A stretch of 64,000 nucleotides of DNA, from the NCBI GenBank assembly GCA_965233185.1, contig CBDDSA010000092.1:1270-65269 (forward strand). Reading direction: 5' to 3'. Shown here piece after piece: positions 14,481 through 29,608 of the stretch (the stretch's first letter is position 1; each line of letters opens with the position of its first letter). The translations under genes and the position numbers were made by a program. Source of the DNA: an uncultured bacterium. GTDB taxonomy: Bacteria > Pseudomonadota > Gammaproteobacteria > Burkholderiales > SG8-39. Under the pieces are notes generated by a model. That model searched no databases and was not told where the DNA came from. It saw only the letters and a program-made list of their open reading frames with translations.

Positions 14481-15324
14481 CATCGACCACCAGGCCCGGG
14501 TTGAACAGCGCATTCTCGTTCACGCCGTTCTTCGCGTAGCCGCGCGGGTTGCACACCACGCGCGTGCCATTCACGCGGTAGTCGAAGCTGTCGTGCGTAT
14601 GCCCGTGCACCCAGAGCTGGCAGCGGCTGCCCTCGAGCAGGTGCTCGGCATCGGAAACGAAGCACGCGTTCAGCAGCGAGCCGGCGAACCGCGGATGGAT
14701 GCTCCGCCGAGAGGGCGCATGGTGCGTGACCACCACGGTCGGCCCGGCGTGCGGCTCGGCGAGCTTGCGCTCGAGCCATGCGGCGTTCCGCGCAAATAGC
14801 GTGGCCGAATCCTCGGGCGTGAACGCCTCGATCCTGGCGAAGTCGCGAATCAAGCGCGAGGCTTCGCGCATCGCCTGCGCGCGCCCGGCGCCATCGCCGA
14901 GCAGCCGAAAGTCGCTCCACAGCGTGCTGCCCAGAAAGCGCACGCCGCCAAGGAGGAGCTCGTCGTTGTCGAGCACGTGCACCGGCGAGCCGGCGCACAG
15001 CCGCCTGAGCTCGCTCACGGTGCCGGCGAGGCTCCCGCCGTAGAACTCATGGTTGCCGGGAACATAGAGCACCGGCTTGCCGAAGCCCGCGGCCCAGGCG
15101 GCCGATGCCTCGGGGCGGGCAATGTCACCGGCCAGGATCACCGCATCGGCGTTCGCCGCCGGCACCTCGAGCCCCGCGACGCTCAGGTGCAGGTCCGACA
15201 GGATGTGCAGCCTTACGGCGCTTTCCTCATGCGCGCGGCGCCGGTGGGAATGGGTCCGCCGCGCGCGCTGCGCCGGCCGGACTTCACTTCCTCGTACCAG
15301 ATGTCGTGGTGCTCGCGCGCCCAC
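14425..15324 (-). CDS. metallophosphoesterase
   Basis: Motifs LHILSDLHL, ILAGDI and VPGNHEF...VTHH...HGHTH. The conserved domain begins at 15210, directly after the gamma-subunit stop. The nearest in-frame canonical start is GTG 15324. Confidence 0.7.
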   Translation of the reverse strand: MGARAPRHLVRGSEVRPAQRARRTHSHRRRAHEESAVRLHILSDLHLSVAGLEVPAANADAVILAGDIARPEASAAWAAGFGKPVLYVPGNHEFYGGSLAGTVSELRRLCAGSPVHVLDNDELLLGGVRFLGSTLWSDFRLLGDGAGRAQAMREASRLIRDFARIEAFTPEDSATLFARNAAWLERKLAEPHAGPTVVVTHHAPSRRSIHPRFAGSLLNACFVSDAEHLLEGSRCQLWVHGHTHDSFDYRVNGTRVVCNPRGYAKNGVNENALFNPGLVVDVSKAALRTRGCSRGASRT

Positions 15325-16289
15325 TCTTCGTCGGTCCAGCCGGTGCGCATGTTGCCGTAGGTGCCGGCGACGCCGATCGTGCCGAGATAGATATGCCCGA
15401 GCGATATGGCGATGTAGATCAGCGCGGCGATGGCATGCACCGCCCATGCGTCCTGCATCACGGCGCGCGTCTGGTCGAAGTTCGGGAACAAGAGCACGAC
15501 GCCCGACCAGCTCACCGCGATCGACAATCCCACCACCCCGACCCAGAACCATACCTTCTCGCCGCCGTTGAAGCGCCCGGAAGGCACGTGCTTGCCGCGC
15601 GCCATGTAGGCCCAGGCGTTGGCGAGCCAGCGCAGGTCGTAGGCGCGCGGGAAGTTGTCCTTGACGTACACCAGGATCATCGCCAGCACCGAGACCATGA
15701 ACAGCGGCGCGATGAAGTTGTGCAGGTTCTTGGCCGCGATGCTGAGCCAGGAAAACAGCGTATAGCCCATCACCGGCAGCAGCACATGCTTGCCGAACAG
15801 CATGATGAGGCCCGAGATGCCGAGCACGCAGAAGCTGATGGCGACCGTCCAGTGCACGATCATCTCGAGGGCCGTGAAGCGCCGCATGAGGCGGCCGCTG
15901 GGCGGATGCTTCAGCTTGAGCGAGCCTTTCCAGGCATAGAAGGCGAGGATGATGAGCGCCACGCCCACCACCAGCCAGCCGCCGTAGAAGGTCACCGGGC
16001 CGTTGCGGAACTGCCGCCAGGCTTCGCCGGCGGTGACGCTCACGTCCTGCCCGAGGAAGCGCGCCGGCGGCTGGATCAGCACCTCCATTTCGCGCCCCGG
16101 CAGGCTGGTGTAGTTCGGCGTGCCCCGCTGCACCTCGCGCCAGACCGGCGCATTGTTTCCCGGCTGCGTGACCTGGCGCTGCTGCTGCGCCTGCTCAGGA
16201 GTGGTGGGCGCGGCATTCTGCTGCGGCGCCTGCTGGGCCGCGGCCGCCCCGGCGAAGGCCAGCGCCAGCGCAACGAGGAACGTCTTCAT
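15213..16289 (-). CDS. formate dehydrogenase gamma (cytochrome b) subunit-like membrane protein with signal peptide and periplasmic extension
   Basis: 358-aa ORF with a signal peptide, four TM helices and conserved His residues (EMIVHWT, NLHNFIAP, AVHAIAALIY, LGHIYLG). Confidence 0.75.
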   Translation of the reverse strand: MKTFLVALALAFAGAAAAQQAPQQNAAPTTPEQAQQQRQVTQPGNNAPVWREVQRGTPNYTSLPGREMEVLIQPPARFLGQDVSVTAGEAWRQFRNGPVTFYGGWLVVGVALIILAFYAWKGSLKLKHPPSGRLMRRFTALEMIVHWTVAISFCVLGISGLIMLFGKHVLLPVMGYTLFSWLSIAAKNLHNFIAPLFMVSVLAMILVYVKDNFPRAYDLRWLANAWAYMARGKHVPSGRFNGGEKVWFWVGVVGLSIAVSWSGVVLLFPNFDQTRAVMQDAWAVHAIAALIYIAISLGHIYLGTIGVAGTYGNMRTGWTDEEWAREHHDIWYEEVKSGRRSARGGPIPTGAARMRKAP

Positions 16290-16638: not shown

Positions 16639-16890
16639 TCAAGACTTGCCTGCGGCCGGCTGGGCGGGCTGCAGTGGTCCCGACCCCGCTCCAGGCCGGC
16701 CCGGCCCGTAGGCCGTGCCCCAGCCCCACACTTCGGAGCCCTTGCCGCGGCGCAGCACCCGCTCGCGGTAGATATCGGCGATCACGTCGCCGTCACCGCC
16801 CAGCAGCGCCTTGGTGGAGCACATCTCGGCGCACGCCGGCAGCTTGCCCTCGGCCAGGCGGTTGCGGCCGTATTTCTTGAACTCGGCGTC
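16639..16890 (-). pseudogene. 3' remnant of a 4Fe-4S (formate dehydrogenase beta-like) subunit gene
   Basis: The frame reads ...DAEFKKYGRNRLAEGKLPACAEMCSTKALLGGDGDVIADIYRERVLRRG..., which is the last Cys-cluster region only. There is no start codon and the N-terminal clusters are absent. Confidence 0.6.
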
Positions 16891-17876
16891 GCGGGCGGAC
16901 GCGGCGCGGGGATGGCGAGCTGATAGAAGTGCAGCGCCGCGAGCTTGGATGTGACCACATCGGGCGTACCGCGCGTATCGAAAGAGCCGGTCTTCGCCGA
17001 CACGGGAAATTGCTGCGCGTCAGCCAGGCGCGCGTCGAAGAAGGTGCCCGAGCCGTGCTGCTGCGTCACCGCGACATAGGCGTTCCAGTACGGCACCGAC
17101 CCCGAGCCGGTCCAGGTGTGCAGGTTCACCCCGGCCAGGCCAAAGGCGGGCGGAATCAGCGTGCCTGCCTGGCCTCCATCCGGCCGGAAAGCCTTGCCGT
17201 CCTTGTCCAGCCAGGCGTCGTAGCGGCCCGGGCCCCAGCTCGCCAGCACTTTCCTCACCGTCGCCTCGTCGACCCCCAGCGCATCGGTGAACGGCTTGAG
17301 GTTCGGCGCGAGCGAGACGATGACGCCGACATTCAGATCGCGGTTGGCCCAGCCGTCCAGGCGCTTGCCTATGCCGGGCGCGAACGAGTCGTCCACGTTC
17401 GAATGGCACAGGGCGCATTGGGTGCCCAAAGACTTGATCCGGCCTGCCTCGTCGAACCGTCCCGTCAGTCCCACCACGGCGTTGAGCCTGAGCAGGGCGA
17501 GCGTCGTCGCCGGGTCGTCGAGATCCACTTTGCCGGCGCGGATGCGTGCTTTCAGCTCGGCCGGAAGCGCCTCCGCATCCACCTTGAGGCCGACCGCCAG
17601 CGCGGTCTTCGGGCTGACTCCCGCACCGACGCCGCCGTTTTGCGCACCGGCGATGGCCTTGTGCAACTGCAAGGCATCGCCGAAAAAGGCTTCCGAGCCA
17701 TAGGTGTCGAAGCGGAAGATGTTTCTGCCCGCCTCGAGCAGCCGCTGCGCATGGCCGTTGATCTGCCGATCGTTTTTCGACAGCTCCTTCTTGTCCGTGG
17801 CGCCGACCACGCCCAGCATGGCAAGCACGACCAGTGATGCTGCGCCCGCACCCGCGGCGACCGCTCCAACTTTCAT
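16782..17876 (-). CDS. cytochrome c peroxidase-like periplasmic haem protein, apparently 3'-truncated
   Basis: AAGGGAGG Shine-Dalgarno before ATG 17876, a signal peptide and a single CALCH haem motif. Homology-like sequence ends near LHFYQLAIPAPRPP (about 16895). The remaining tail is the off-frame Fe-S remnant. Confidence 0.6.
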   Translation of the reverse strand: MKVGAVAAGAGAASLVVLAMLGVVGATDKKELSKNDRQINGHAQRLLEAGRNIFRFDTYGSEAFFGDALQLHKAIAGAQNGGVGAGVSPKTALAVGLKVDAEALPAELKARIRAGKVDLDDPATTLALLRLNAVVGLTGRFDEAGRIKSLGTQCALCHSNVDDSFAPGIGKRLDGWANRDLNVGVIVSLAPNLKPFTDALGVDEATVRKVLASWGPGRYDAWLDKDGKAFRPDGGQAGTLIPPAFGLAGVNLHTWTGSGSVPYWNAYVAVTQQHGSGTFFDARLADAQQFPVSAKTGSFDTRGTPDVVTSKLAALHFYQLAIPAPRPPATPSSRNTAATAWPRASCRRAPRCAPPRRCWAVTAT

Positions 17877-17890
17877 ATGAACCTCCCTTT

Positions 17891-18583
17891 CTAGTAACCG
17901 TAGAACTGTTCGCTGCGCACGTCGTGGTCGCCGACGCCTGCGCCGCGCAGAAGGGTCTTCATCGCGCCCACCATGCCGGGGGGACCGGCGAGGTAGTAAA
18001 GCGGCGCGGCTGCGTCGGCGACGAAGCACTTCACCGTCTGCGCATCGACGAAGCCGTCGGCGTCGGTCATCCTGGCCAGCAGGCGGAAGCTGCCGTTTTG
18101 CTGCGCCAGGCGCTGCAGCTCGGCGAGGAATGCCGCATCCTGCGGCCGGCGGTTGGAGTAGAGCAGGTACAAGGGCCGGGCGAGCCCGTCATGCGCGGCC
18201 TGCCGCAGCATGCTCAGGAAAGGCGTGATGCCGATGCCGCCGGCGATGAATACCGCGGCCCGGGAAGCCTCCTCGTGCAGCGTCATCAGGCCGCGCGGCC
18301 CCTTGAGCCGGATGCGGGAACCGGCGGGCAGCGCCTTCAGCGCGCGCTTGAACGCGCTGCCTTCGCGCATGCGCGTGGCGATGAGGAGCTCGCCCTCGCA
18401 AGGGGCGCCCGCCAGCGAGAAGATGCGCTGCGCGCTGTTCGGCTCGGGCGGCGGCTCGAGCAGGGAAAGGGTCACCGATTGCCCGGCCTTGAAGTCGAAG
18501 CCCGCCGGCCTGGACAGGTGGAACGCCAGGGTGCCCGCGGCGACCTCTTCGGCGCCCCGGACGAGGACCTCGTGCGAGGTCAA
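17891..18583 (-). CDS. FNR-family FAD/NAD(P)-binding oxidoreductase
   Basis: 230-aa ORF with RIFSLAG (FAD site) and FIAGGIGITPF (NAD(P) site). Confidence 0.8.
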   Translation of the reverse strand: MTSHEVLVRGAEEVAAGTLAFHLSRPAGFDFKAGQSVTLSLLEPPPEPNSAQRIFSLAGAPCEGELLIATRMREGSAFKRALKALPAGSRIRLKGPRGLMTLHEEASRAAVFIAGGIGITPFLSMLRQAAHDGLARPLYLLYSNRRPQDAAFLAELQRLAQQNGSFRLLARMTDADGFVDAQTVKCFVADAAAPLYYLAGPPGMVGAMKTLLRGAGVGDHDVRSEQFYGY

Positions 18584-18825
18584 AACGAGCGGATGCCGGG
18601 AAGCGCTTCCTTCAGCTCGTGGCGCTTTCCTTCTTCGTCATACCAGTAAAGCTTGCCGGGCTCCTCGCCGGCCGTGAGCTCATGGGAGCTGTCGCAGAAC
18701 GGCTGGTTCTCCGACAGCCCGCACTTGCACAGCCACTGCTCCTTGCCGTCGATATTGAAGGGGTGGGTTCGGTTGCGGTGCGCTTTACGATGCGTGCCAT
18801 GCCTGGCTCCTTGGAGGTTAGGCAT
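18580..18825 (-). CDS. CDGSH iron-sulfur domain protein (probable true start 18800, with a one-base frameshift)
   Basis: CKCGLSENQPFCDSSH motif. The ORF-track ATG 18825 lacks a Shine-Dalgarno and lies inside lysR. ATG 18800 has AAGGAG 6 nt upstream and reads MARIVKRTATEP, but it is out of frame at the G4 run 18760-18763. Confidence 0.7.
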   Translation of the reverse strand: MPNLQGARHGTHRKAHRNRTHPFNIDGKEQWLCKCGLSENQPFCDSSHELTAGEEPGKLYWYDEEGKRHELKEALPGIRSF

Positions 18826-19714
18826 TGGATGACGCGCGCCGCCGCCGCGTTCCGGAAGATGACTTCTTCACCGCGGCGGCCACGTGCCGCAGCCCGGCGA
18901 GCGCAGGCGTGATGATTTTCGGGTCCGCGCTTTCCGGATAGACCGCGTAGGCGGGAAACAGGAACTCGGGCGCGCCGCGGACGAGCTTCAGGCGGCCGCT
19001 GCGCAGGTGCGGCCCGACCGCCTGCGCGCGGAAGTAGCCCGAGCCCCCTGCCCGCAGGATGAACTGCAGCGCGAGCGGCCCCAGGTCGACGTAGGTGCCG
19101 GCATTGGAGAGCTGCGGATACGTGAGGTTGTGGTGCGCGGCGAAGTCCGGCCCCCAGTCGACGTAGACGTAGTCCTCGGGGTGCGGCGTGGCCGCCTTGC
19201 GCCGCGCGGTGGTCACCAGCACCAGCTTTTCCTTCATCAGCAGCTCGATCTTCAGGCCGGGACGGTATTGCGGCGCGTACATGACCGCGATGTCGATGAC
19301 GCCCTCGGCGACCTGGCTCATCAGCTCCTGCGGCAGGCGCACCTGCGCGCGCACCGCGAGCTGGGTGGCGCTGCGGCGCATCCACACCAGCCAGTCCAGC
19401 AGGAACGGATTCCACAGGCTGAGCTCGCCGCCGACCGACACCACGGCGCGCAGGCCGGGCGGCACCGCCACCTGGTGGCGCGCGCGCTCCCACATCTGCA
19501 CCAGCAGCGGCGCGTAGCGCATGAACTGCTCCCCCGCGGGGGTAAGCGAGGCGCCCGCCTTGTTGCGCACGAAGAGCTTCGCGCCCAGCAGCTCTTCGAG
19601 GGTCTGCACGCGCACGCTCACCGCCGTCTGCGTGACGTGCAGGCGCTCGGCCGCGCGCACGAAGTTGCCGCTGTGCACGATCTCGAGGAAGGTCCGCGCC
19701 AGTGCGATGTCCAT
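18818..19714 (-). CDS. LysR-family transcriptional regulator
   Basis: N-terminal HTH (MDIALARTFLEIVHSGNFVRAAERLHVTQTAVSVRVQTLE). ATG 19714 is preferred over the ORF-track TTG at 19720. Confidence 0.85.
   Translation of the reverse strand: MDIALARTFLEIVHSGNFVRAAERLHVTQTAVSVRVQTLEELLGAKLFVRNKAGASLTPAGEQFMRYAPLLVQMWERARHQVAVPPGLRAVVSVGGELSLWNPFLLDWLVWMRRSATQLAVRAQVRLPQELMSQVAEGVIDIAVMYAPQYRPGLKIELLMKEKLVLVTTARRKAATPHPEDYVYVDWGPDFAAHHNLTYPQLSNAGTYVDLGPLALQFILRAGGSGYFRAQAVGPHLRSGRLKLVRGAPEFLFPAYAVYPESADPKIITPALAGLRHVAAAVKKSSSGTRRRRASSNA
18824..18853 (-). promoter_or_regulatory. putative ECF-sigma promoter GGAAC-N17-CATCCAAT driving the CDGSH operon
   Basis: The minus strand reads cGGAACgcggcggcggcgcgcgtCATCCAATgc. 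The same motif occurs at 27035-27064 and 27744-27774. Confidence 0.55.
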
Positions 19715-19732
19715 TCCCAAGTATGCGCAAAG

Positions 19733-19770
19733 CTGGATTGAAAGGCCAATAAGTTTCGTTTTACTTGATC
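19733..19770 (+). promoter_or_regulatory. 38-bp AT-rich module shared with 13181..13218, containing an AAGT-N8-ACTT dyad
   Basis: Lies in the 80-bp divergent region between lysR (ATG 19714) and the DUF488 gene (ATG 19795). 32 of 38 positions match 13181..13218. Confidence 0.45.
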
Positions 19771-19794
19771 ATGAAACCGGCCGAACATGCCTGC

Positions 19795-20163
19795 ATGAGA
19801 CGCAGGCGCATCAGGCTGAAGCGGGTCTACGACAGGCCCAGCCCCGACGACGGGCTGCGCGTGCTGGTCGACCGCCTGTGGCCGCGCGGCCTCAGCCGCC
19901 GCTCGGCGTGCGCCGACCTGTGGCTGAGGGACGCCGCGCCGAGCGCCGCGCTGCGCCGCTGGTTCGGCCACGATCCGCGCCGCTGGAAAGCCTTCCGCCG
20001 CAAGTACCGCGCGGAGCTCGCGCGGCGGCCCGACATCCTGCGGCTGCTCGAAGACCTGCGGCGGCGCACGCCGCTCACCCTGCTCTTCGGCGCGCGCGAC
20101 CCGGCGCACAACAACGCCGTCGCATTGCTGGAGCTTTTGGACAAGCCAGGAGATAGACCATGA
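19795..20163 (+). CDS. DUF488-family protein (YeaO-like)
   Basis: Frame of ORF 19765..20163. Contains RIRLKRVYDRPSPDDGLRVLVDRLWPRGLS. The start at ATG 19795 is inferred from family N-termini. Confidence 0.7.
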   Translation: MRRRRIRLKRVYDRPSPDDGLRVLVDRLWPRGLSRRSACADLWLRDAAPSAALRRWFGHDPRRWKAFRRKYRAELARRPDILRLLEDLRRRTPLTLLFGARDPAHNNAVALLELLDKPGDRP

Positions 20164-20858
20164 AAGCCAAGGACATCATGACCACGCCGGTCATCAGCGT
20201 GACGCCCGACACCACGGTGAGCGAGATCGCCGTCTTGCTGTTCGAGCGGCGCATCAGCGCCGTGCCGGTGGTCAAGGACGGCCGCCTGGTCGGCATCGTG
20301 AGCGAAGCCGACCTGCTGCATCGCCACGAGCTGGGCACCGATTGCATCGCGCAGTCGGGCTCGTGGTGGCTGCGCCTGTTCAGCGCCGACCGCTCCATCG
20401 AGGAATACATCAAGTCGCACGCGCGCCGGGCGCGCGACATCATGACGCGCGAGGTGGCGACGGTCGCGCCCGAGACGCCGGTGACCGAGGTCGCCACCGT
20501 GCTCGAGCGCCGCGGGGTCAAGCGCGTTCCGGTCGTGGAGGCCGGGCGGCTGGCCGGCATTGTCAGCCGGGCAAACCTGGTGCAGGCGCTGGCCCGCACG
20601 CCGCAACCCGCGGTCCGTGCAACGCGCCCCAGCGACGAGGCGATCCGCGCCCAGCTGCTGGCGGAGCTCGAGCGCCAGCCGTGGTGGCGGCGCGGGATGT
20701 CGAGCGTCTATGTCAGCGAGGGCGTGGTCATGTTCTCGGGCGCCATCGGCGAGGAGGAAGAGCGTCACGCGGCGCGGGTTGCCGCCGAGAACATCGCCGG
20801 CGTGCGGCGGATCGAACACAGCCGCCACATGTACCGCGACATGCCCTCGATGGTATGA
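20160..20858 (+). CDS. CBS-pair plus BON domain protein
   Basis: 232-aa ORF with two CBS repeats (IMTTPVISV..., IMTREVATV...) and a C-terminal BON-like segment. Confidence 0.75.
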   Translation: MKAKDIMTTPVISVTPDTTVSEIAVLLFERRISAVPVVKDGRLVGIVSEADLLHRHELGTDCIAQSGSWWLRLFSADRSIEEYIKSHARRARDIMTREVATVAPETPVTEVATVLERRGVKRVPVVEAGRLAGIVSRANLVQALARTPQPAVRATRPSDEAIRAQLLAELERQPWWRRGMSSVYVSEGVVMFSGAIGEEEERHAARVAAENIAGVRRIEHSRHMYRDMPSMV

Positions 20859-21343
20859 ATCCCGAGGCCTTCGCGCGGCTCATGCGGCGCCACAACCGGA
20901 CGCTGTTCCGCACCGCGCGCGCCATCCTGCGCGACGGCGCCGCGGCGGAGGACGCGCTGCAGGAAGCGTGGCTGCGCGCCTACCATGCGATCGATACGTT
21001 TCGCGGCGAGGCAAAGCTCGGTACCTGGCTGGTGCGCATCGTCGTCAACGAGGCGCTGGCACGCCGCCGGAAGGACCAGCGCCATGTCCCGGTCGTGCAG
21101 GAAACCGAGCAAGCCATCCTCAAGCAGGACGAGCCCGAAGGCCTGGCGCAGCGCAGCGAGCTGCGGCGCCGGCTGGAAGCGAAGATTCGCCTCCTGCCGG
21201 ATCCCTTCCGTGCGGTGTTCATGCTGCGCGCAGTGGAAGAGCTTTCGGTCCACGAGACCGCGGCCGCATTGCATATCCCTGAGTCGACGGTCCGAACCCG
21301 GTTTTTCCGCGCGCGCAGAGAGCTGCGCGCGCGGCTCTCCTGA
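20855..21343 (+). CDS. ECF-type RNA polymerase sigma-70 factor (short paralogue)
   Basis: ATGA overlap with the CBS gene. 162 codons. Sigma2 region DALQEAWLRAYHAIDTFRGEAKLGTWLVRIVVNEA and sigma4 region LSVHETAAALHIPESTVRTRFFRARREL. Confidence 0.85.
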   Translation: MNPEAFARLMRRHNRTLFRTARAILRDGAAAEDALQEAWLRAYHAIDTFRGEAKLGTWLVRIVVNEALARRRKDQRHVPVVQETEQAILKQDEPEGLAQRSELRRRLEAKIRLLPDPFRAVFMLRAVEELSVHETAAALHIPESTVRTRFFRARRELRARLS

Positions 21344-21354
21344 GAAAGCCTCCC

Positions 21355-21525
21355 ATGCCTTACTTCCTCGCCGCCATCCTTTCCCTGACGATGCTCACCG
21401 CTTGCAGTGAAAAACCGCCGCGGCTCGATCCCGAAAAGGTGCAGGCCTACAACGTAGAAAACGGGCCTGGCCGCCTTGTGGAGCGCACGCTGAACCAAGG
21501 CGAGTCGGAGCGGATAAGCCATTGA
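21355..21525 (+). CDS. 56-aa putative lipoprotein
   Basis: Not in the ORF track because it is under 60 aa. Product MPYFLAAILSLTMLTACSEKPP... has lipobox LTAC. The Shine-Dalgarno is weak. Confidence 0.35.
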   Translation: MPYFLAAILSLTMLTACSEKPPRLDPEKVQAYNVENGPGRLVERTLNQGESERISH

Positions 21526-21571
21526 TGCCCTGAAGGGGAGCGCAACTTGCTGGTAGCGGGGCTCTGGAAGC

Positions 21572-22090
21572 ATGCCCCCGACCGTCTGGACCCTCGGCCA
21601 TTCCACGCGCCCCATGGATGGCTTCCTCGACCTGCTCGCCGGCTACCGGCTGGAGGCGCTCGCCGATGTCCGGCGCTTCCCCGGCTCGCGGCGCCAGCCG
21701 CAGTTCGCCCAGGCGGCGCTGCGGGAATCGCTTGCCGGGCGCGGCATCGCGTATCGCTGGCTGCCGGCGCTGGGCGGCCGGCGCCGGCCGCGCCCGGATT
21801 CCCCGAACAGCGCCTGGCGAAACGCCTCGTTTCGCGGCTACGCCGATCACATCGGCACGGCTGAATTTTCCGGCGGACTGGACGAGCTGCTTGCACTCGC
21901 GGAGCAGCAGCGCACCGTGCTGACGTGCGCGGAAGCCGTGTGGTGGCGCTGCCACCGCGCGCTCATCGCGGATGTGCTTTGCGTCCGCGGGATCGAAGTG
22001 CTGCACATCCTCGACGCACGGCATTGCACCGTGCATCCCTACACCTCGGCTGCAAAGATCGTCGAAGGCCGGCTCAGCTATGCGCGATAG
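21572..22090 (+). CDS. DUF488-family protein
   Basis: 172-aa ORF containing VWTLGHSTRP, LADVRRFPGSRR and CAEAVWWRCHR. Confidence 0.75.
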   Translation: MPPTVWTLGHSTRPMDGFLDLLAGYRLEALADVRRFPGSRRQPQFAQAALRESLAGRGIAYRWLPALGGRRRPRPDSPNSAWRNASFRGYADHIGTAEFSGGLDELLALAEQQRTVLTCAEAVWWRCHRALIADVLCVRGIEVLHILDARHCTVHPYTSAAKIVEGRLSYAR

Positions 22091-23226
22091 GCGGCAGCGC
22101 ACCCGGCTGCTCGACTACCTGCTGGATCAGCCCATGCCGCTGGCCGGCACGCTGGCCGTCCTGGTCGCGGTGCTCGAAGCGGCGGTCGACTGGACGACCT
22201 GGGTGGAGCTCGACGTATCCGCGGTCTACGGCATCCCGCTGGTGCTCGCCGCCGTGGCGCGTAACCGGCGCCTCGTCTGGATCCTGACCGCCTGCCTGGT
22301 ATTCATGACCTTTGCGGCTTATGCCGCGCAAATCGGCCCGGATGTGTTTTCCGTGGACGAGCCGTACTTCGTCAACCGCGTAATGTCCGCCGCCGCGCTG
22401 ACCCTTAGCGCCGGCCTGTGCCATGTGTGGATCGTGGCCGCCAACCGGCTTGCTGCGCAACGACGCTCGCTCATCGAGCAGAACCAGGAGCTCGACCGCC
22501 TGCGCCGCGCCGCCGAGGAGGCGAGCGGCCGCAAGACGCAGCTGCTGGCGTCGGTGTCGCACGATATTCGCACGCCCCTGACCACCATCGATCTGATCGC
22601 GGATCTCGTCCCTGCATAGCGCCGGCGACCCGGCGCTCGCCGCGAAAGTGCCGGAGCTGGTGCAGCGACTGCGGCGCAACACGAGCTCGCTTGCCGACCT
22701 GGTTTCGGCGCTCGTGGACATCTCTTCCCTGGACGCCGGCCGCATCGGCGTTCGCAGCGGCGAATTTTCTCTGAATGAATTGCTGGTGGAGGAACGCGAG
22801 CGCCTCATGCCGCTTGCCCAGGCAAAGGGACTGCGGCTCACCACGAAGGCGCCCGACCCGCCGGTGCGGCTGCTGACCGACCGGGTGAAGCTCACCCGGG
22901 TCCTGAGCAATCTGGTCGGCAACGCGATCAAGTTCACGGCGCGCGGAGGAGTGAGCGTGAGCGCCACCGTAACGGCCGAGCGCTCGCTCCTGATACAGGT
23001 AAGCGACACCGGCGTCGGCATGGCCGGCGAGAGCTTGGAGCGGATCTTCGACGAGTACGGAAAGCTCGGCAGCTCCCAGCGCGACGCCAGCACAGGCTGG
23101 GGGTTGGGTCTCGCCATCTCGCGCCGCCTGGTCGGCGTCATGGGCGGCAGCATCACGGTCGAGAGCGAGCCGGGGCGCGGGACCGTCTTCAGCGTGCATC
23201 TGCCCGCGGCTTGCGTGGTGAAGTGA
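22080..23226 (+). pseudogene. membrane histidine kinase, interrupted by a single-base frameshift
   Basis: The N-part (TM helices, coiled coil and H-box SVSHDIRTPL) stops at 22619. The DHp/HATPase part (NLVGNAIKFT, DTGVGM, GWGLGLAISR) continues in the +1 frame. Removing one C from the CCC run at 22610-22612 restores the frame. Confidence 0.75.
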
Positions 23227-23247
23227 GCCGCCCGTCTCGGGACGGCG

Positions 23248-24318
23248 CTAGCCGCCGCTGCGGGCGGACAGCTCGTGCACGATTACGCCTTCCATACGAT
23301 CGACCGGCGCCTGCCAGGGCGCGCGCTCGAGCATGCGCCGCGTATCCGCCAGGCCCGCCTCGCATCGAAAGCGAATGCCTGCGGCACTGAAGTCGAGGTC
23401 CTTCCAGTAGTCCTCGCCCTCGAGCGCCGGCGCGAGCAGGCGCACCACGTGCATCGTGGTGCCGCAGCCCCACGAGGCGAGCTCGCGGCACTTCGGCGCA
23501 TTTCGTTTCTCGGGGGGAAGCTGCTTTGCGAGCTCGCGGATCACATGCCGCAGGCGGTGGATCTGCTTCTGGCGCGCGATGTGGCTGTCGTCGCGGCTGG
23601 CATAGCGGATATCCTTCTCGCGCGCCAGGACCTGCCAGATGGATTCGGGCTCGTGGCCGGTAGGCTGCCACACGTTCACGCCGAAAATCACCGAATCGCG
23701 TCGCGGATTGTCGTCGAGCACCGTCTCCAGCGGCGTGTTCGAGTAAAGGCCCCCGTCCCAGAACGCTTCGCCGTCGACCCGGATCGCCGGAAAGCCGGGA
23801 GGCAAAGCCGCCGAGGCCATTACCTCGTCAAGGCCGAGGGCCGCCTTGCGGCTGTCGAAGTAGCGCATTTCGCCGCTCTTGACGCTTACCGCGCCGACCG
23901 TCAGACGCGGATGCGCCGCGTGCAGAACCGCCAGGTCCACGAGCGAGCCGAGCGTCTCGCGCAGCGGCTCGGTGCGGTAATAGGAGGCAACATCCACGCC
24001 GACCTTCGCCTGGATGCCTCCCCAGGCCGGAAGGCGGGGCGAGAAGAATCCCGTAATGCCGTACATCAGGGTGGAGAGGTTGGCGAAGGGTTTCTCCTGC
24101 TCGAAGCGTCGCCAGAGCTCGCGCAGCCGCGGCAGCCGATCTGCCGCCGTGTTGCCGGCGATCACTGCCGCGTTGAGCGCGCCGGTCGAGGTGCCGATCA
24201 CCCAGGCGGGCTCGATGCCCGCCTCGTGAAGCGCCTGATACACCCCGAGCTGATACGCCCCGAGCGCGCCTCCCCCCTGAAGCACCAGGACCACCTGACC
24301 TGGAAGCGCGGCACTCAC
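23248..24318 (-). CDS. patatin-like phospholipase
   Basis: GTG 24318 overlaps the bdhA stop (GTGA). Contains LQGGGALGAY oxyanion motif, GTSTGA nucleophile and DGG. Confidence 0.85.
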   Translation of the reverse strand: MSAALPGQVVLVLQGGGALGAYQLGVYQALHEAGIEPAWVIGTSTGALNAAVIAGNTAADRLPRLRELWRRFEQEKPFANLSTLMYGITGFFSPRLPAWGGIQAKVGVDVASYYRTEPLRETLGSLVDLAVLHAAHPRLTVGAVSVKSGEMRYFDSRKAALGLDEVMASAALPPGFPAIRVDGEAFWDGGLYSNTPLETVLDDNPRRDSVIFGVNVWQPTGHEPESIWQVLAREKDIRYASRDDSHIARQKQIHRLRHVIRELAKQLPPEKRNAPKCRELASWGCGTTMHVVRLLAPALEGEDYWKDLDFSAAGIRFRCEAGLADTRRMLERAPWQAPVDRMEGVIVHELSARSGG

Positions 24319-25094
24319 TGCGCCGTCCAGCCGCCATCGATGGGCAGCACCGCGCCGGTGATCGACGCCGCGTGCGCCGTGCAAAGGTAGGCCGTAAGAG
24401 CTGCGATTTCCTCTACGCCGACGAACTTCTTGGTCGGTTGCGCCGCGAGCAGCACGTCGCGCTTCACCGCCTCCTCGCACAGGCCGCGCGCCTTGGCGGT
24501 GTCGGGGATCTGCTTCTCCACCAGCGGCGTAAGCACGTAGCCCGGGCACAGTGCATTGACGGTGATGGCGTGCTCCGCGACCTCCAGGGCAACGGTCTTG
24601 GTGAAGCCTGCGATGCCGTGCTTGGCGGCGACATACGCCGACTTGTACGGGCTCGCCACCAGCGCATGCGCCGACGCAATATTGACGACCCGGCCCCAGC
24701 CCCTCGACTTCATCGCTGGCAGCGCGGCGCGCACTGTATGGAATGACGAGGACAGGTTGATCGCGATGATGGCGTCCCACTTGTCGGGCGGGAACTCATC
24801 GACCGGCGCAACATGTTGAATGCCGGCGTTGTTGACGAGCACATCGACCGCGCCGAACTGCGCGATGGCCTGCTTCACCATGGCCGCAATCTCGGCGGGC
24901 CGGGTCATGTCGGCGGGGTCGTAGCTCACGCTTACCCGATAGACAGATCTGAGCTCGCTCGAGATGCGCTCGATTTCGCCCGCGTCTCCGAAGCCGTTCA
25001 GCACGATGTTGGCGCCTTCGGCCGCCAGGCGCGTCGCGATAGCGAGCCCGATGCCTGACGTGGAGCCGGTCACCAGCGCCGTTTTGCCTTTCAT
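24315..25094 (-). CDS. bdhA: 3-hydroxybutyrate dehydrogenase (SDR)
   Basis: 259 aa. GSTSGIGLAIA, NNAGIQHVAPV, YVAAKHGIAGFTK and the ending IDGGWTAQ closely match BdhA as I recall it. Confidence 0.85.
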   Translation of the reverse strand: MKGKTALVTGSTSGIGLAIATRLAAEGANIVLNGFGDAGEIERISSELRSVYRVSVSYDPADMTRPAEIAAMVKQAIAQFGAVDVLVNNAGIQHVAPVDEFPPDKWDAIIAINLSSSFHTVRAALPAMKSRGWGRVVNIASAHALVASPYKSAYVAAKHGIAGFTKTVALEVAEHAITVNALCPGYVLTPLVEKQIPDTAKARGLCEEAVKRDVLLAAQPTKKFVGVEEIAALTAYLCTAHAASITGAVLPIDGGWTAQ

Positions 25095-25540
25095 CGGCGC
25101 TTCGCTTCCGGCGGCGTATCGACCGCGACGCCGAGCTCGTACACCAGCTTGCCGCCGAGCCAGCCGGAAATGACGAGCAGGCCTATGCCAAGGGCCGACA
25201 GCCAGATGAGGCCGCCCGGGCCTTCGGCGGCATCCATGCGCAGCCAGAAGTTGACGACGTAGAGCGCCACTACCGTCAGGTTGATCGCCATGTGCACGAG
25301 CGCCGTCCTTTTCGGTCCCGGCGGCAGGGATAGCAGGTCGATCAGCCCGGGCACGGCGGCCAGTAGTGCGCCGACTATGCCGCCCCCCATGGTATAGAGC
25401 GCCACCGTGGTCCACGCCGGGTTGGTGCTGCCGCCGGCATGGATCAGATCGCAGACCAGCGAGAAGATCCACAAACCGATCGGGATGGGGACGAGCATGG
25501 GATGCATCGGATGCCCGGCGATGCTGGCTGGCGTGCGCAT
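25091..25540 (-). CDS. DUF2231-family membrane protein
   Basis: 149-aa ORF with HPMLVPIPIGLW and four TM helices. ATGA overlap with bdhA. Confidence 0.7.
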   Translation of the reverse strand: MRTPASIAGHPMHPMLVPIPIGLWIFSLVCDLIHAGGSTNPAWTTVALYTMGGGIVGALLAAVPGLIDLLSLPPGPKRTALVHMAINLTVVALYVVNFWLRMDAAEGPGGLIWLSALGIGLLVISGWLGGKLVYELGVAVDTPPEAKRR

Positions 25541-25681
25541 TCATGCCTCCTTCGGGGTGATTGGCCGGCGGGATATTGCGCTGCTCATGTGACGCACGCT
25601 AGCGCGTCGCACAGCTATTCGATGAGACCCGCCCTCCGCGCGTTCCGGGAACGCCCGAAGCGCCGCGGTCATCCACTTCGT

Positions 25682-26971
25682 ATGGACCTCGCGGACCCGC
25701 CGAGTCAGGAAATGCAGCTACGCGACCAGGTCCGCCAGCTCATGCTGCGCAATGTCAAGAACGGCTATTCCAGCCTGCTGGGCCAGGACTACTGCTATGT
25801 CGCGCCGGCGCTGAAGCCCTACCCGTTCCAGTGGTTCTGGGACACCTGCTTTCACGTCGTGATCCTGGCGCGGCTGGGCGAACATGACCTCGCCAAGCGC
25901 AATCTGCGCAGCCTCTTTGCCATGCAAGCCGACAACGGCTTCGTCGGGCACATGATTTTCTGGAACCAGGTGCTGCCGAAGCGCCGCACCGACATCATGC
26001 AGGCGCGCCCAAGCTGGCAGTCGCTGCGCCCTCACATGAGCGCGCTGATACAGCCACCTTTCGCCGCTCAGGCGCTGCATGCCTTGTACGAAGCGTGCGG
26101 CGATCGGGTCTATCTCGGCGAAATGTACGCCCGAGTCCGGCGCCACCATGAATGGCTGGCGAAGAACCGCGACTTCGACGGCGACGGGCTCATGACGATC
26201 ATCAGCCCCTTCGAGTCCGGCATGGACTGGAAGGCGTCCTATGACCCGGCGCTTGGCTACGCAAGGCGCACAACGCCGCGGCGCTTGTTGTATGGCTCGA
26301 AGCTTTACTGGAAGGCGGGGGGCGTCGACCTCGGCAATTTCCTGCTGGGCTACGACCTGCAGCGCATCAAGGCGCGCGGCAGGTTCCGGGTGAAGGACGC
26401 GGGCTTCAACGCAATTTACGCCGTCGACCTGCATTGCATGGAGAAGCTCGCAGTACTCGCCGGCGATGACCCCGAGATATTCGCCGAAAGGCGCCGCCGG
26501 CTCGTAAAAAGCATGGTGGAGCTGATGTACGACGCCGGGTCCGCGGCGTTCTACGACGTGCAGGAGCCGGGCTCAAAGCAAATCCGCGTGCTGACGCCGA
26601 CCATCTTCTATCCGCTCGCCATCGAAGAGCTGGACCGCGACCTCGCGAAGCGGGTAGTCGATGCACATTTCGATAGCAAAAGCGAATTTGCGGCGCTGCT
26701 GCCCATGCCTTCGGTCGCGATGCGCGAGCCGGCGTTCTTCCCCGGCGAAACGCCGTTCATCTGGCGCGGACCGACATGGGCGCCCGCCAACTGGTTCCTT
26801 TACCACGCCCTGAAGAAGCGGGGCTTCGACGGGAACGCCGAGCGGCTGCGCGGCTCGTTAAGCGCCCTGGTCGAAAAGAGCGGCTTCCGCGAATACTACG
26901 ACCCGTCCAGCGGCGAGGGGCACGGCGCGCGCGAGTTCACTTGGTCGGGTCTCCTCGTGGACATGCGCTGA
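25682..26971 (+). CDS. (alpha/alpha)6-barrel glycoside hydrolase, MGH1/GH63-like
   Basis: Frame of ORF 25439..26971. The start is ambiguous between 25622 and 25682. Contains QWFWDTCFH and a C-terminal EYYDP.SGEG...FTWSG. Confidence 0.6.
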   Translation: MDLADPPSQEMQLRDQVRQLMLRNVKNGYSSLLGQDYCYVAPALKPYPFQWFWDTCFHVVILARLGEHDLAKRNLRSLFAMQADNGFVGHMIFWNQVLPKRRTDIMQARPSWQSLRPHMSALIQPPFAAQALHALYEACGDRVYLGEMYARVRRHHEWLAKNRDFDGDGLMTIISPFESGMDWKASYDPALGYARRTTPRRLLYGSKLYWKAGGVDLGNFLLGYDLQRIKARGRFRVKDAGFNAIYAVDLHCMEKLAVLAGDDPEIFAERRRRLVKSMVELMYDAGSAAFYDVQEPGSKQIRVLTPTIFYPLAIEELDRDLAKRVVDAHFDSKSEFAALLPMPSVAMREPAFFPGETPFIWRGPTWAPANWFLYHALKKRGFDGNAERLRGSLSALVEKSGFREYYDPSSGEGHGAREFTWSGLLVDMR

Positions 26972-27034
26972 AGCCAGCTCAGGCGGCTTGCTGGATGCGC
27001 ACGCCCATGGCCGCGTTTCAAGGCGCAAACCGCC

Positions 27035-27064
27035 GGAACGGGAACGGCAAAGCGCGCATCCAAT
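27035..27064 (+). promoter_or_regulatory. putative autoregulatory ECF promoter GGAAC-N17-CATCCAAT
   Basis: cGGAACgggaacggcaaagcgcgCATCCAATgg. The -10 element overlaps ATG 27063, so the predicted transcription start falls near ATG 27069 (possibly leaderless). Confidence 0.55.
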
Positions 27065-27752
27065 GGCCATGAAAACCGCCATTCGCGAGGAAGCCGCCGA
27101 GCGGCTGACCGACACGGAGCTCATCCACCGGACCCAGGCGGGCGACATGCGGGCCCTGGAGGCCCTGATGCGCCGCCATAACCGCACGCTTTACCGGACG
27201 GCGCGAGCCATCCTGCGGGACGACGCCGAGGCCGAGGATGTCGTCCAGGAAGCCTATCTCAAGGCCTACAAGGCGCTCGGATCGTTCCGCGCCGAGTCCA
27301 AGCTGTCCACCTGGCTGGTGCGCATCGCCGCCAACAAGGCGCTCATGCGCCGCCGCAAGAACGCCCGCACCGCGGCCGTGGTGCCGATGGATGCGGCTGC
27401 CGCGGGCGCGCAATGGGAAGAACCTATGTCCGACGAAGCCGGTCCCGAACGCAATGCCCTCGGCGGCGAAATGCGCGAGCTGCTGGAAAAGCGCATCGAT
27501 GCCCTGCCCGATGGCTACCGCGCGGTGTTCGTGCTGCGCGCGCTGGAAGAGCTCACCGTGGAGGAAACGGCCGCGGCGCTGGACATTCCGGAGGCGACGG
27601 TGCGCACGCGCTACTTTCGCGCGCGCGGCCTGCTGCGCGAATCGCTGGCACGCGACATCGACCGCAGCCTCGAGGATGCCTTCGCCTTCGCCGGCGCGCG
27701 CTGCGATCGCATCGTCACCAACGTGCTCGAGAGGATCAAGGCGGGAACGTAA
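27063..27752 (+). CDS. ECF-type sigma-70 factor with a roughly 55-aa C-terminal extension
   Basis: The sigma2 and sigma4 regions are paralogous to 20855..21343. The extra tail is ESLARDIDRSLEDAFAFAGARCDRIVTNVLERIKAGT. The start may be ATG 27069. Confidence 0.85.
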   Translation: MAMKTAIREEAAERLTDTELIHRTQAGDMRALEALMRRHNRTLYRTARAILRDDAEAEDVVQEAYLKAYKALGSFRAESKLSTWLVRIAANKALMRRRKNARTAAVVPMDAAAAGAQWEEPMSDEAGPERNALGGEMRELLEKRIDALPDGYRAVFVLRALEELTVEETAAALDIPEATVRTRYFRARGLLRESLARDIDRSLEDAFAFAGARCDRIVTNVLERIKAGT

Positions 27753-27774
27753 GCGGGTCGCTCGTGCATCCAAT
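27744..27774 (+). promoter_or_regulatory. putative ECF promoter GGAAC-N18-CATCCAAT for the ferritin-like/cytochrome c operon
   Basis: gGGAACgtaagcgggtcgctcgtgCATCCAATgt. The -35 element overlaps the sigma stop codon. AAGGAA Shine-Dalgarno at 27795-27800. Confidence 0.55.
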
Positions 27775-27805
27775 GTGTGCGTCAACAACCACACAAGGAA
27801 ATGAC

Positions 27806-28375
27806 ATGAGCTTCTTCGCGTTCTCTTCCCCGCTCGTCGCACGGCGCGCGTTCCTCGGCAAATCCGGCCTTGTGCTTTCCGGCACCGCCATCGCGCTGCT
27901 CGCCGGGCGCGACGTCCTGGCGGCAAAGGCAGGCGGGTCCACCGCGGCCGACGCCAACATCCTGAACACCGCGCTCGCCGCCGAGCTCGAGGCGGTGGCG
28001 GCCTACCAGGTGGGCGCCGAAAGCGGCCTGCTGGAAAAACCGGTGCTCGCGCTCGCCGGCCAGTTCCAGGGCCACCACAAGGAGCACGCCGACGTGCTGG
28101 CGAAGACCATCCGCCAGCTCGGCGGCAAGCCGGTCGACGCGAAGAAGAAGTACGACTTCCCGACCAGCGCACTGAAGGACCAGGCCGATGTGCTGCGCTT
28201 CGCCGCGAGCCTGGAGAAAGGCGCCGTCAGCGCCTATCTGGGCGCGGTGCCGCTGTTCCGCAGCCGCGAGCTGTCCAAGGCGGCCGCCAGCATCCTGGGC
28301 GACGAGGCCATGCACTGGGCGGTGCTGCGCAACGCGCTGGGCGAAAATCCGGTTCCTTCGGCGTTCGTCTCGTAA
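27806..28375 (+). CDS. Tat-exported ferritin-like domain protein
   Basis: Frame of ORF 27413..28375. Twin-arginine signal ARRAFLGKSG. Ferritin-like helices (LNTALAAELEAVAAYQ, HHKEHADVL, LEKGAVSAYLG, GDEAMHWAVL). Confidence 0.7.
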   Translation: MSFFAFSSPLVARRAFLGKSGLVLSGTAIALLAGRDVLAAKAGGSTAADANILNTALAAELEAVAAYQVGAESGLLEKPVLALAGQFQGHHKEHADVLAKTIRQLGGKPVDAKKKYDFPTSALKDQADVLRFAASLEKGAVSAYLGAVPLFRSRELSKAAASILGDEAMHWAVLRNALGENPVPSAFVS

Positions 28376-28716
28376 TGCTCGAAGGTGCAGTCCTGGTCGC
28401 TGCACTGGCGCTTGGCGATGCCAAGGCGGGCGAGGACGTGTACTCGCGCTGCCTTGGCTGCCATTCCCTGGAGTACAACCGCACCGGCCCGAAGCATTGC
28501 GGCGTCCTCGGGCGGCGCGCCGGCAGCGTGCCCGGCTACGAGTACTCGCCCGCGATGAAGCGCTCGGGCATCGTGTGGAGCGAAAAGGCGCTGGAGCGCT
28601 TCCTCGCCGACCCGGGCAAGACCGTGCCCGGCACCACCATGACCTACGCAGGCGTTTCCGATCCGGCGGACCGGTCGCACCTCATTGCATACCTGAAAAA
28701 ACAACGCTGCGAATGA
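28375..28716 (+). CDS. class I c-type cytochrome
   Basis: 113-aa ORF with a signal-like N-terminus, CLGCH haem motif and a distal Met region (GTTMTYAG). Confidence 0.8.
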   Translation: MLEGAVLVAALALGDAKAGEDVYSRCLGCHSLEYNRTGPKHCGVLGRRAGSVPGYEYSPAMKRSGIVWSEKALERFLADPGKTVPGTTMTYAGVSDPADRSHLIAYLKKQRCE

Positions 28717-28719
28717 GAA

Positions 28720-28740
28720 AAATGGGGTCCGTCCCCATTT
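28720..28740. terminator. bidirectional hairpin between convergent genes
   Basis: AAATGGGG-tccgt-CCCCATTT, with A/T tracts on both sides, between the stops at 28716 (+) and 28748 (-). Confidence 0.6.
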
Positions 28741-28747
28741 AGGAGGG

Positions 28748-29608
28748 TCAGGCGGGCAGCGTGACGCAGGCGTCCTCGTACTTGCCCTCGCCCATCGTGC
28801 CGGGCTCGAAGATCTCGCGCTCGCGGATCCACTTGAAGGAGTCCTCGAACACTTCCTTGGTGTAGGGCTCGAACACGATGCGCTCGCCCGGCCCCCAGCG
28901 GCGCGTATCGATCTGCGTCAGGAAGCGCTGCGGGAACTCGTTGCGGTAGTGCCTGGTGTAGAGCTCGGGCCGCAGGTCGATGTCGCGCTGCGCGAGGCGC
29001 AGGGCGGCGAAGTATTTCTTCAGGTCCGAGGGCGAAGGTTCGCCGGTGATCATGGTGGCCATCATGAAAGTGGTGTCGATGACCTTGCGGAAGCCGAGCT
29101 GCTCGAGGAAGTAGTACGGCCCGGAGAACAGCGACGCGGCCGGGACCTCCCGGTCGATGAGCTTCTCCAGGCGCGAGAACAGGATGCCGTCGGCGAACGA
29201 CAGCTTGATTTCGTTCAACGGCAGGTACTGCTCGAGCGCCTGGATGGTCGAATAGTGGCTGCCCGACTGGTAGCCCACCGAGATGGGCACGCCGCGCAAG
29301 TCCTCCGGCGTGCGGATGGGCGATTCGGGCGGCACGAACACTCCGGCGGGCGACACCGAGTAGCAATCGGCGTAGAGCTTGCCGTGTCCCGCAGAGGCGG
29401 CCACGTTGACCGTCCAGTGGCAGGCGCAACTCACGTTGGTGTCGCGCCCTTTCTCGATGTTCTGGTAGGCGCCTACCTTGTCGGGCGTCCTGTGGTTCTC
29501 GAACACGCCGCGGAACTCGTAGTCCAGCCCCTGCGCCTTGAAGTAGCCCTTTTCCTCGGCGACCCACTCGTGCAGGCGGAAATGCGGGGTGATGGCGAAC
29601 TTAGGCAT
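28748..29608 (-). CDS. cytoplasmic NMT1/THI5-like (periplasmic-binding-protein fold) protein
   Basis: 286-aa ORF with no signal peptide. Paralogous to 50764..51642 (shared CAC.W and PISVG..GSH motifs). Overlaps the upstream oxygenase gene by 8 nt. Confidence 0.6.
   Translation of the reverse strand: MPKFAITPHFRLHEWVAEEKGYFKAQGLDYEFRGVFENHRTPDKVGAYQNIEKGRDTNVSCACHWTVNVAASAGHGKLYADCYSVSPAGVFVPPESPIRTPEDLRGVPISVGYQSGSHYSTIQALEQYLPLNEIKLSFADGILFSRLEKLIDREVPAASLFSGPYYFLEQLGFRKVIDTTFMMATMITGEPSPSDLKKYFAALRLAQRDIDLRPELYTRHYRNEFPQRFLTQIDTRRWGPGERIVFEPYTKEVFEDSFKWIREREIFEPGTMGEGKYEDACVTLPA

Follow-up and report, generated by a model that had tools for sequence, protein, structure and literature searches.

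We analyzed a 64,000-nucleotide (nt) stretch of DNA from an uncultured Burkholderiales bacterium (contig CBDDSA010000092.1; hereafter the window), focusing on an extracytoplasmic function (ECF) sigma factor gene and the promoters around it. This gene probably encodes an ECF29 sigma factor with a self-activated local regulon of five promoters, a leaderless mRNA, an activity gated by the protein's own C-terminal tail, and a redox-type output. In the mechanism we favor, the sigma factor would activate its own transcription along with the rest of the five-promoter regulon, and its activity would be gated post-translationally by its tail and not by an anti-sigma factor. The gating would probably work via the single invariant cysteine of the tail, acting as a thiol or cofactor switch, and the regulon would yield redox-cofactor proteins on both sides of the membrane.

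Judged by its sequence, the product of the gene at 27069-27752 is a member of the group ECF29, as catalogued in the ECF classification of Staron 2009 and Casas-Pastor 2021. It has no sigma regions besides 2 and 4, carries the RCE/D motif in a tail of about 30 amino acids (aa), lacks a neighboring anti-sigma gene, and shows a promoter of its own and homology to RpoE8 of S. meliloti. Pfam placed Sigma70_r2 at residues 35-103 and Sigma70_r4_2 at residues 139-188 and found no region 3 (residues are counted from ATG 27063 throughout). The NCBIfam profile NF008888/PRK11922 matched with 298.3 bits (curated cut-off 204) over profile positions 3-228 of 231, tail included. By BLASTP, the protein is 44% identical over 217 aa (E = 2e-51) to RpoE8 (SMb20592, pSymB), again with the tail in the alignment; there, DAFPFAGKRCERL stands against DAFAFAGARCDRIV, and the RpoE8 tail includes FPFAGKRCER. 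The published description of ECF29 gives its members a tail of about 30 aa that carries a conserved RC[E/D], and no anti-sigma factor (PMC7826278); the group is not mentioned in the text of Rhodius 2013. A first-pass annotation of this DNA had called the gene an extended ECF sigma factor without an adjacent anti-sigma gene. The extension is indeed conserved, and these features fit what has been published on ECF29 (PMC7826278, PMC6180224). The genes around it encode a glycosidase, a Ferritin_2 protein, a cytochrome c, an NMT1-like protein, and a Rieske oxygenase. B. japonicum EcfQ, which is inducible by reactive oxygen species and has no anti-sigma factor, was considered for the same group and rejected; EcfQ belongs to ECF33, so data on it are not transferable.

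For comparison we used 84 related loci, comprising 4 plasmid loci from a tblastn search and 80 loci from a one-genome-per-species scan; in the latter, mostly from Burkholderiales metagenome-assembled genomes, the sigma factor is 54-71% identical to ours. No anti-sigma gene lies beside the sigma gene in the window and none recurs in the 84 neighborhoods, with a novel soluble inhibitor still possible. Two closer relatives, 93% and 83% identical in the sigma factor, were compared by gene tables; the 93% one is the contig carrying P0004.

The cross-species ECF29 promoter consensus consists of a -35 element GGGAAC and a -10 element GCATCCAA (Lang et al. 2018, PMC6180224). In S. meliloti, a transcription start has been mapped behind that motif upstream of rpoE8, and a second, perfect copy lies 1 nt past the rpoE8 stop codon, before the next gene (PMC6180224). 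The window presents the same arrangement. Direct reading bore out the first-pass observation of one motif with an N17 spacer before the sigma gene and one with an N18 spacer before the ferritin-like/cytochrome c genes (Table 1), and both match the ECF29 consensus. As also noted in the first pass, the first CATCCAAT runs into ATG 27063-27065, after which the next ATG comes at 27069, and the second motif runs over the end of the sigma gene, with its stop codon TAA (27750-27752) inside the spacer of the 27744 promoter; an AAGGAA, the Tat-signal ferritin-like gene, and the CLGCH cytochrome c gene follow.

These two sites are not the only ones. A weight matrix built from 56 distinct sigma-upstream sites, all from outside the window, returned exactly five sites in the 64 kb, scoring 21.6-31.8 bits, with the ferritin-like promoter highest at 31.8 bits. 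No others reached 12 bits, and the maximum in 20 Markov-simulated windows was 17.9 bits. In addition to the sites before the sigma and ferritin-like genes (matrix spans 27035-27062 (+) and 27744-27772 (+)), the matrix found sites at 25648-25675 (+), 25646-25619 (-), and 18853-18826 (-), before a glycosidase gene, a DUF2231 gene, and an operon headed by a CDGSH iron-sulfur protein gene. All five are correctly oriented before a gene. Thus, the first pass was incomplete in listing two sites, and its description of a "self-contained" module does not hold, as at least three more promoters lie 1.4 to 9 kb away. The divergent sites at 25646 (-) and 25648 (+) lie with their -35 elements next to each other, together making up the palindrome CGTTCCGGGAACG (window 25634-25652). 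No sigma-70-like promoter was detected in 25000-28900, and an Rfam search of 17500-29500 gave no matches.

In 69 of the 84 related loci, the motif is found no more than 260 nt upstream of the sigma gene, and the spacer is 17 nt in all 58 strict-pattern sigma-upstream sites. The consensus that we derive from them is CGGGAACGC-N14-(g/t)(t/g)CATC[C/T/G]AATG. Enrichment and conservation at orthologous genes, on which the first-pass proposal had been made to depend, are both found. The motif also stands before ferritin-like genes (7 loci), CDGSH genes (6 loci: L007, L019, L030, L041, L053, and L083), and DUF4142, folE, reductase, and dihaem cytochrome genes. When the window proteins were searched by tblastn against the 84 loci, ferritin-like genes were found beside the sigma gene in 38, cytochrome c genes in 27, CDGSH genes in 15, dihaem cytochrome genes in 14, reductase genes in 13, and DUF2231 genes in 9; the MGH1-like glycosidase had no counterpart in any of them. 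By this measure, all target gene types except the glycosidase travel with the sigma factor in related genomes. Plasmid 3 of Variovorax sp. RA8, for example, has the order reductase, sigma, ferritin-like, cytochrome c.

The longer N18 spacer of the ferritin-like promoter is kept in L008 (1922-1950), L009 (6646-6674), L013 (5877-5849), and L085 (3292-3320). In L085 a kinase gene lies between the sigma and ferritin-like genes and the N18 promoter is nonetheless retained, along with its leader AATGTGTGCGT...CCACACAAGGAAA. This promoter may be deliberately weaker or differently tuned.

Two matches to a relaxed pattern, at 7897-7924 (+) and 27019-26992 (-), scored below 12 bits and were rejected as functional sites. 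The second lies 16 nt upstream of the sigma -35 element and points away from the sigma gene. At the equivalent divergent place, L085 and L086 have an intact GAAAC-N17-CATCCAAT driving folE (GTP cyclohydrolase I), and in the window the glycosidase gene fills the side where these loci have folE. The degenerate motif is probably what remains of that divergent promoter.

Table 1. Features of the sigma factor locus and its candidate regulon, in window coordinates
Feature	Coordinates	Strand	Remarks
ECF29 sigma factor	27069..27752	+	227 aa from ATG 27069, 229 aa from ATG 27063
Layout of the sigma factor			region 2, residues ~35-103; region 4, ~139-193; C-terminal tail, 197-229
C-terminal extension of the sigma factor	27651..27749	+	~33 aa (residues 197-229), motif FAFAGARCDRIV; from alignment
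ECF29-type promoter, sigma gene	27035..27064	+	GGAAC 27035-27039, N17, CATCCAAT 27057-27064; 24.2 bits
ECF29-type promoter, ferritin-like/cytochrome c operon	27744..27774	+	GGAAC 27744-27748, N18, CATCCAAT 27767-27774; 31.8 bits
ECF29-type promoter, CDGSH operon	18824..18853	-	GGAAC-N17-CATCCAAT; 29.6 bits (matrix site 18853-18826)
ECF29-type promoter, DUF2231 gene	25619..25646	-	GGAAC-N17-CATCGAAT; 26.6 bits
ECF29-type promoter, MGH1-like glycosidase	25648..25675	+	GGAAC-N17-CATCCA, then CT not AT; 21.6 bits
Degenerate divergent motif	26992..27019	-	GAAAC-N17-CATCCA(gcaa), 16 nt upstream of sigma -35; <12 bits
Twin-arginine translocation (Tat) signal (RRAFLG) Ferritin_2/DUF4439-type four-helix-bundle protein	27806..28375	+	189 aa; PF13668, 124 bits
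Small class I c-type cytochrome (CLGCH)	28375..28716	+	113 aa; Pfam Cytochrom_C; partial cytochrome c-550 CycA match
Hairpin terminator	28720..28740	unassigned	AAATGGGG-loop-CCCCATTT; between cytochrome c gene and convergent NMT1-like gene
CDGSH iron-sulfur protein gene	18580..18800	-	73 aa when intact; frame disrupted near 18760
FNR-like flavin/NAD(P)H reductase	17891..18583	-	230 aa; Pfam NAD_binding_1; partial NCBIfam reductase-component matches
Homologue of ~455-aa dihaem c-type cytochrome	16782..17876	-	CALCH present; second CxxCH region missing
DUF2231 membrane protein	25091..25540	-	149 aa; PF09990, 123 bits; Shine-Dalgarno GGAGG, leader ~78 nt
MGH1-like (GH63-type) glycoside hydrolase	25682..26971	+	429 aa; PF22422, 240 bits; partial glucosylglycerate hydrolase match
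ECF29-like paralogue without tail and first ~27 residues	20855..21343	+	162 aa; NF008888 positions 29-196, 202.7 bits
CBS/BON gene	20160..20858	+	translationally coupled to paralogue, whose start overlaps its stop
Lipoprotein open reading frame (lipobox LTAC)	21355..21525	+	56 aa; downstream of paralogue

The AAGGAA following the second promoter precedes ATG 27806 of the ferritin-like gene, whose stop codon shares 1 nt with the start codon of the cytochrome c gene. In 27 of the 84 loci a cytochrome c gene follows the ferritin-like gene. The hairpin beyond the pair is flanked by A- and T-runs and could terminate transcription both ways. Against PF00210 (Ferritin), the ferritin-like protein scores 19.3 bits, under the gathering cut-off of 24.5. 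Among solved structures, the closest to it is 8kce (E = 2e-8), a tardigrade dinuclear-metal metabolite phosphatase of a desiccation-related family. By these profile and structural matches, the protein is not an iron-storage ferritin. The first-pass term "iron-responsive" had relied only on the name "ferritin-like" and finds no support in a Tat-exported Ferritin_2 protein below the PF00210 cut-off. What recurs downstream of the sigma gene is, in terms of gene content, a periplasmic metal-binding bundle together with a small electron carrier.

Downstream of the promoter at 18853, the CDGSH gene has MARIVKRTATEPTP in one frame and FNIDGKEQWLCKCG...CDSSH in another, which fits a 1-nt deletion in the run CCCACCCC (18750-18770). 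Its homologues are intact, at 73 aa, in 15 loci, and the frameshift is either a sequencing or assembly error or the mark of a pseudogene. The dihaem cytochrome homologues are about 455 aa long with two CxxCH; in the window copy, homology stops at about residue 350 (near 16863), and the gene looks truncated. A cytochrome b561 resembling formate dehydrogenase gamma, with a long N-terminal extension, lies just downstream of this operon at 15213-16289 (-), and the same b561 type is found within 3 kb of the sigma gene on Variovorax RA8 plasmid 3 (L001 14-1147), beside PAS, hemerythrin, and MarR genes.

The DUF2231 gene is also present in the contig carrying P0004. The glycosidase ATG 25682 lies 7 nt past CATCCA, just as the ATG does at the sigma gene, with ATG 25712 as a possible alternative start. 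Genes of the GH15/TREH_N type (trehalase- or glucoamylase-like) occur near the ECF29 module in the contigs carrying P0004 and P0023 and in L085 (10539-12127). Together with the GH63-type hydrolase of the window, they hint at a link to compatible-solute turnover. A redox or oxidative-stress output is suggested by the periplasmic bundle with its electron carrier, taken together with the CDGSH protein, flavin reductase, and dihaem cytochrome of the window and the GTP cyclohydrolase I of the relatives. On gene content, then, the output would be directed at redox, oxidative, or desiccation-type stress, not at iron storage. "Redox-responsive," as the first pass had it, overstates the case; what can be kept is a reading drawn from target-gene content and the single invariant cysteine.

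The relation of the -10 element to the start codon was examined next to that in the relatives. The CGTC-type core of ECF promoters is placed at -12 to -9. If the CATC of the motif occupies these positions, +1 would fall on A27069, the distance from -10 to start being inferred. We infer that the sigma mRNA starts at or beside ATG 27069 and is leaderless. CATCCAATGGCCATGAAA is identical in L085 and L086, whose sigma factor is 82% identical. An ATG 7 nt past the -10 hexamer is also found in L008 and L012, with distances of 8 nt in L009 and L030, 10 nt in L015 and L031, and 12 nt in L007 and L083. Within the motif, AATG stays conserved (A 97%, A 97%, T 91%, G 68%) also at loci whose open reading frame starts 15-40 nt further on. 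We therefore assign AATG to the promoter and consider ATG 27063 an unlikely start codon. Because L20, G27, and D28, upstream of the next Met, are conserved among relatives, translation must start at 27063 or 27069.

In the first pass the tail had been given as a Cys-containing extension of roughly 55 aa; the cysteine is there, and the length is about 33 aa (residues 197-229). Its near-invariant residues are F207, F209, G211, R213, C214, R216, V218, and V221, of which R213-C214-D215 are encoded at 27699-27707. Of the 84 loci, 81 carry the motif F-x-F-x-G-x-R-C-[D/E/N]-R, and all 84 have R-C, across alpha- and betaproteobacteria. C214 is the only cysteine in the tail and the sole conserved cysteine of the sigma factor. 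No Pfam domain covers the tail. An AlphaFold2 model from a 96-sequence alignment (mean predicted local distance difference test score, pLDDT, 76; predicted template modelling score, pTM, 0.42) renders the individual domains well and continues the last region-4 helix straight into the tail at pLDDT 62-81. PDB searches by structure (Foldseek) and by sequence found only ordinary tail-less ECF sigma factors.

In S. meliloti, 126-fold overexpression of RpoE8 induced no target (PMC6180224), which argues that making the protein is insufficient for activity. The invariance of R-C, the want of a recurrent anti-sigma-like neighbor, and this overproduction without activation together make the case for a sensor in the tail. 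We regard it as suggestive, somewhat short of an even chance, that the tail is a sensor gating sigma activity.

The system most like ours is RpoE8 itself. Both have regions 2 and 4, a tail of about 30 aa with F-x-F-x-G-x-R-C-[D/E]-R, no linked anti-sigma gene, the same promoter before the sigma gene and again directly past its stop codon, and, downstream, a periplasmic four-helix-bundle protein with a small soluble electron carrier. They differ in that the downstream pair is a Tat-signal Ferritin_2 protein and a cytochrome c here, whereas S. meliloti and Burkholderia sp. RPE67 have DUF4142 and a cupredoxin. The GGAAC-CATCCA spacer is 17 nt here (18 at the ferritin-like promoter) and 16 in S. 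meliloti; the sigma start is leaderless-like here, whereas rpoE8 has a leader with GGAG; and the window has four further promoters and a tail-less paralogue.

Other groups also do without an anti-sigma factor. In ECF238 (CorE/CorE2 of Myxococcus xanthus, SigZ of B. subtilis), a short Cys-containing C-terminal extension takes its place (PMC7826278). Those tails are Cys-rich and metal-binding, whereas ours has one Cys, another motif, and a different phylogenetic group; membership in the CorE-like group was rejected, since it calls for several tail cysteines. In ECF41, ECF42, and ECF56 as well, a C-terminal extension modulates the sigma core without an anti-sigma factor, but their extensions are SnoaL-like or TPR and 100-200 aa long, and ours is 33 aa without a Pfam domain. 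An ECF41-like assignment was likewise rejected, as Pfam matched no SnoaL-like domain of about 100 aa and the tail has 33 aa. OrbS of Burkholderia cenocepacia, an iron-starvation sigma factor, has been described as sensing its signal itself (PMC9023288). OrbS, also proteobacterial, belongs to a different ECF group, and a siderophore regulon like that of OrbS is absent here.

Could the motif have arisen by chance, or serve an unrelated DNA-binding protein? A general caution, that consensus matches do not prove function, is all that speaks for this, and we find it scarcely credible. The window has four matches to the pattern GGAAC-N15-20-CATCCA where 0.08 would be expected, a count not reached in any of 100 shuffles; CATCCAAT alone also occurs four times against 0.89 expected, the figure that the first pass had put at about one per window. 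Moreover, the motif is identical to an independently published consensus (PMC6180224), and it keeps a fixed N17, the strand of the downstream gene, and the same position in 69 of the 84 loci. A second alternative is that the sigma mRNA has a leader and is translated from ATG 27063 on transcripts started upstream, for instance if transcription of the glycosidase gene reads through. In its favor, the interval 26971-27035 shows no detected terminator, gene callers placed the start at ATG 27063 (P0001 = 229 aa), and the distance from -10 to the transcription start is taken here from ECF promoters in general. We nevertheless hold a leadered mRNA to be distinctly unlikely: AATG is part of the promoter consensus even where it cannot be a start codon, neither ATG 27063 nor ATG 27069 is preceded by a Shine-Dalgarno sequence, and an ATG 7-12 nt past CATCCA recurs in the closest relatives. 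Nor is the module likely to sense or manage iron, with the ferritin-like protein as iron store or ferroxidase and the sigma factor of an iron-starvation type. The protein does resemble ferritins at the level of the Pfam clan, the CDGSH and haem proteins of the regulon require iron, and OrbS (PMC9023288) offers a precedent for an on-board iron sensor. This reading is very improbable, however, in view of the scores (124 bits for Ferritin_2, below cut-off for PF00210), a Tat-exported and hence periplasmic location, a dinuclear-metal phosphatase as nearest solved relative, and DUF4142 with a cupredoxin at the equivalent position in S. meliloti and Burkholderia RPE67. No siderophore, TonB, or Fur-related genes were linked in the related loci compared, and the tail has a single Cys, unlike a Cys-rich sensor.

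The tail might instead be a structural element, or one that contacts the promoter or RNA polymerase, with control either purely transcriptional, through positive feedback and a further regulator, or in the hands of an unlinked anti-sigma factor. The AlphaFold2 tail is a mere continuation of the last region-4 helix, and the conserved tail-less paralogue implies that the core fold can stand without a tail. Variable sensory genes also adjoin the sigma gene in relatives, namely a HisKA kinase gene in L085 and a PAS protein gene in the contig carrying P0023, and PAS, hemerythrin, and MarR genes lie near it in Variovorax RA8. On the other hand, R-C in 84 of 84 loci exceeds what helix packing needs, RpoE8 at 126-fold failed to switch on a perfect-consensus promoter, and the 84 neighborhoods share no anti-sigma-like gene. 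On balance, this reading of the tail appears rather unlikely to us. Several observations do count against the combined picture of a self-activated regulon under a tail-gated sigma factor. The AlphaFold2 pTM of 0.42, with only an extended helix, says nothing about tail docking or inter-domain packing; one cysteine alone cannot form a metal site; and an unlinked inhibitor or a missing co-factor could also explain the null overexpression in S. meliloti. Two target genes in the window look damaged, the CDGSH gene by its frameshift and the dihaem cytochrome gene by truncation. The glycosidase site is without the AAT of the -10 element and the gene is without a counterpart at other loci, making it the least secure target. 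Finally, more distant ECF29 genes have a leader of 15-40 nt with a Shine-Dalgarno sequence, GGAG in the case of rpoE8, so leaderlessness would be a trait of this clade. The leaderless start at 27069 that the first pass had proposed thus fits the promoter geometry and is common to the closest relatives, but it extends to close relatives only.

The window also carries a 162-aa paralogue of the sigma factor. The first pass had reported it as lacking the tail, and alignment shows that the first ~27 residues are missing too. Its NF008888 score of 202.7 bits falls just under the cut-off of 204. It has lost the first helix; the region-4 recognition helix TVRTRFFRAR is retained, and a segment of its region 2 very closely resembles that of the main sigma factor. 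The unit of CBS/BON gene, 162-aa sigma gene, and 56-aa lipoprotein gene is also present on the contig carrying P0004, and the 162-aa sigma gene with the 56-aa open reading frame in L085; because it recurs in relatives, the paralogue is a maintained gene. The weight-matrix scan found no ECF29-type promoter before it. The paralogue may recognize the same promoters without tail-dependent control. Two DUF488 genes flank the CBS/BON-sigma unit (19765-20163 and 21572-22090), one of an "inactive N3" subclade and one ordinary, and a DUF488 gene also lies beside the sigma region on a Methylocystis plasmid (L002).

Membership in ECF29 and the two-promoter arrangement are already known, the latter from the rpoE8 precedent, and in this the finding repeats what the classification papers already predict. 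New are the five-promoter local regulon, the extended consensus, the clade-specific leaderless geometry, the conserved N18 spacer, and the conserved tail-less paralogue. As a speculation, which we consider unlikely as a whole, ECF29 sigma factors could be one-component sensors in which a thiol or cofactor-ligand switch at R-C frees an autoinhibited sigma factor to drive a two-compartment electron-transfer defence, with the tail-less paralogue from the CBS/BON stress operon providing a sensor-independent bypass on the same promoters. If this were true, the defence would consist of a periplasmic dinuclear-metal bundle protein with its electron carrier and, in the cytoplasm, the CDGSH protein with the flavin reductase. 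ECF29 is widespread in proteobacteria and still uncharacterised, and the sole experimental attempt, in S. meliloti, found no targets. The window and its 84 relatives give work on ECF29 a candidate regulon, an extended promoter consensus, an invariant motif, and a natural tail-less paralogue.

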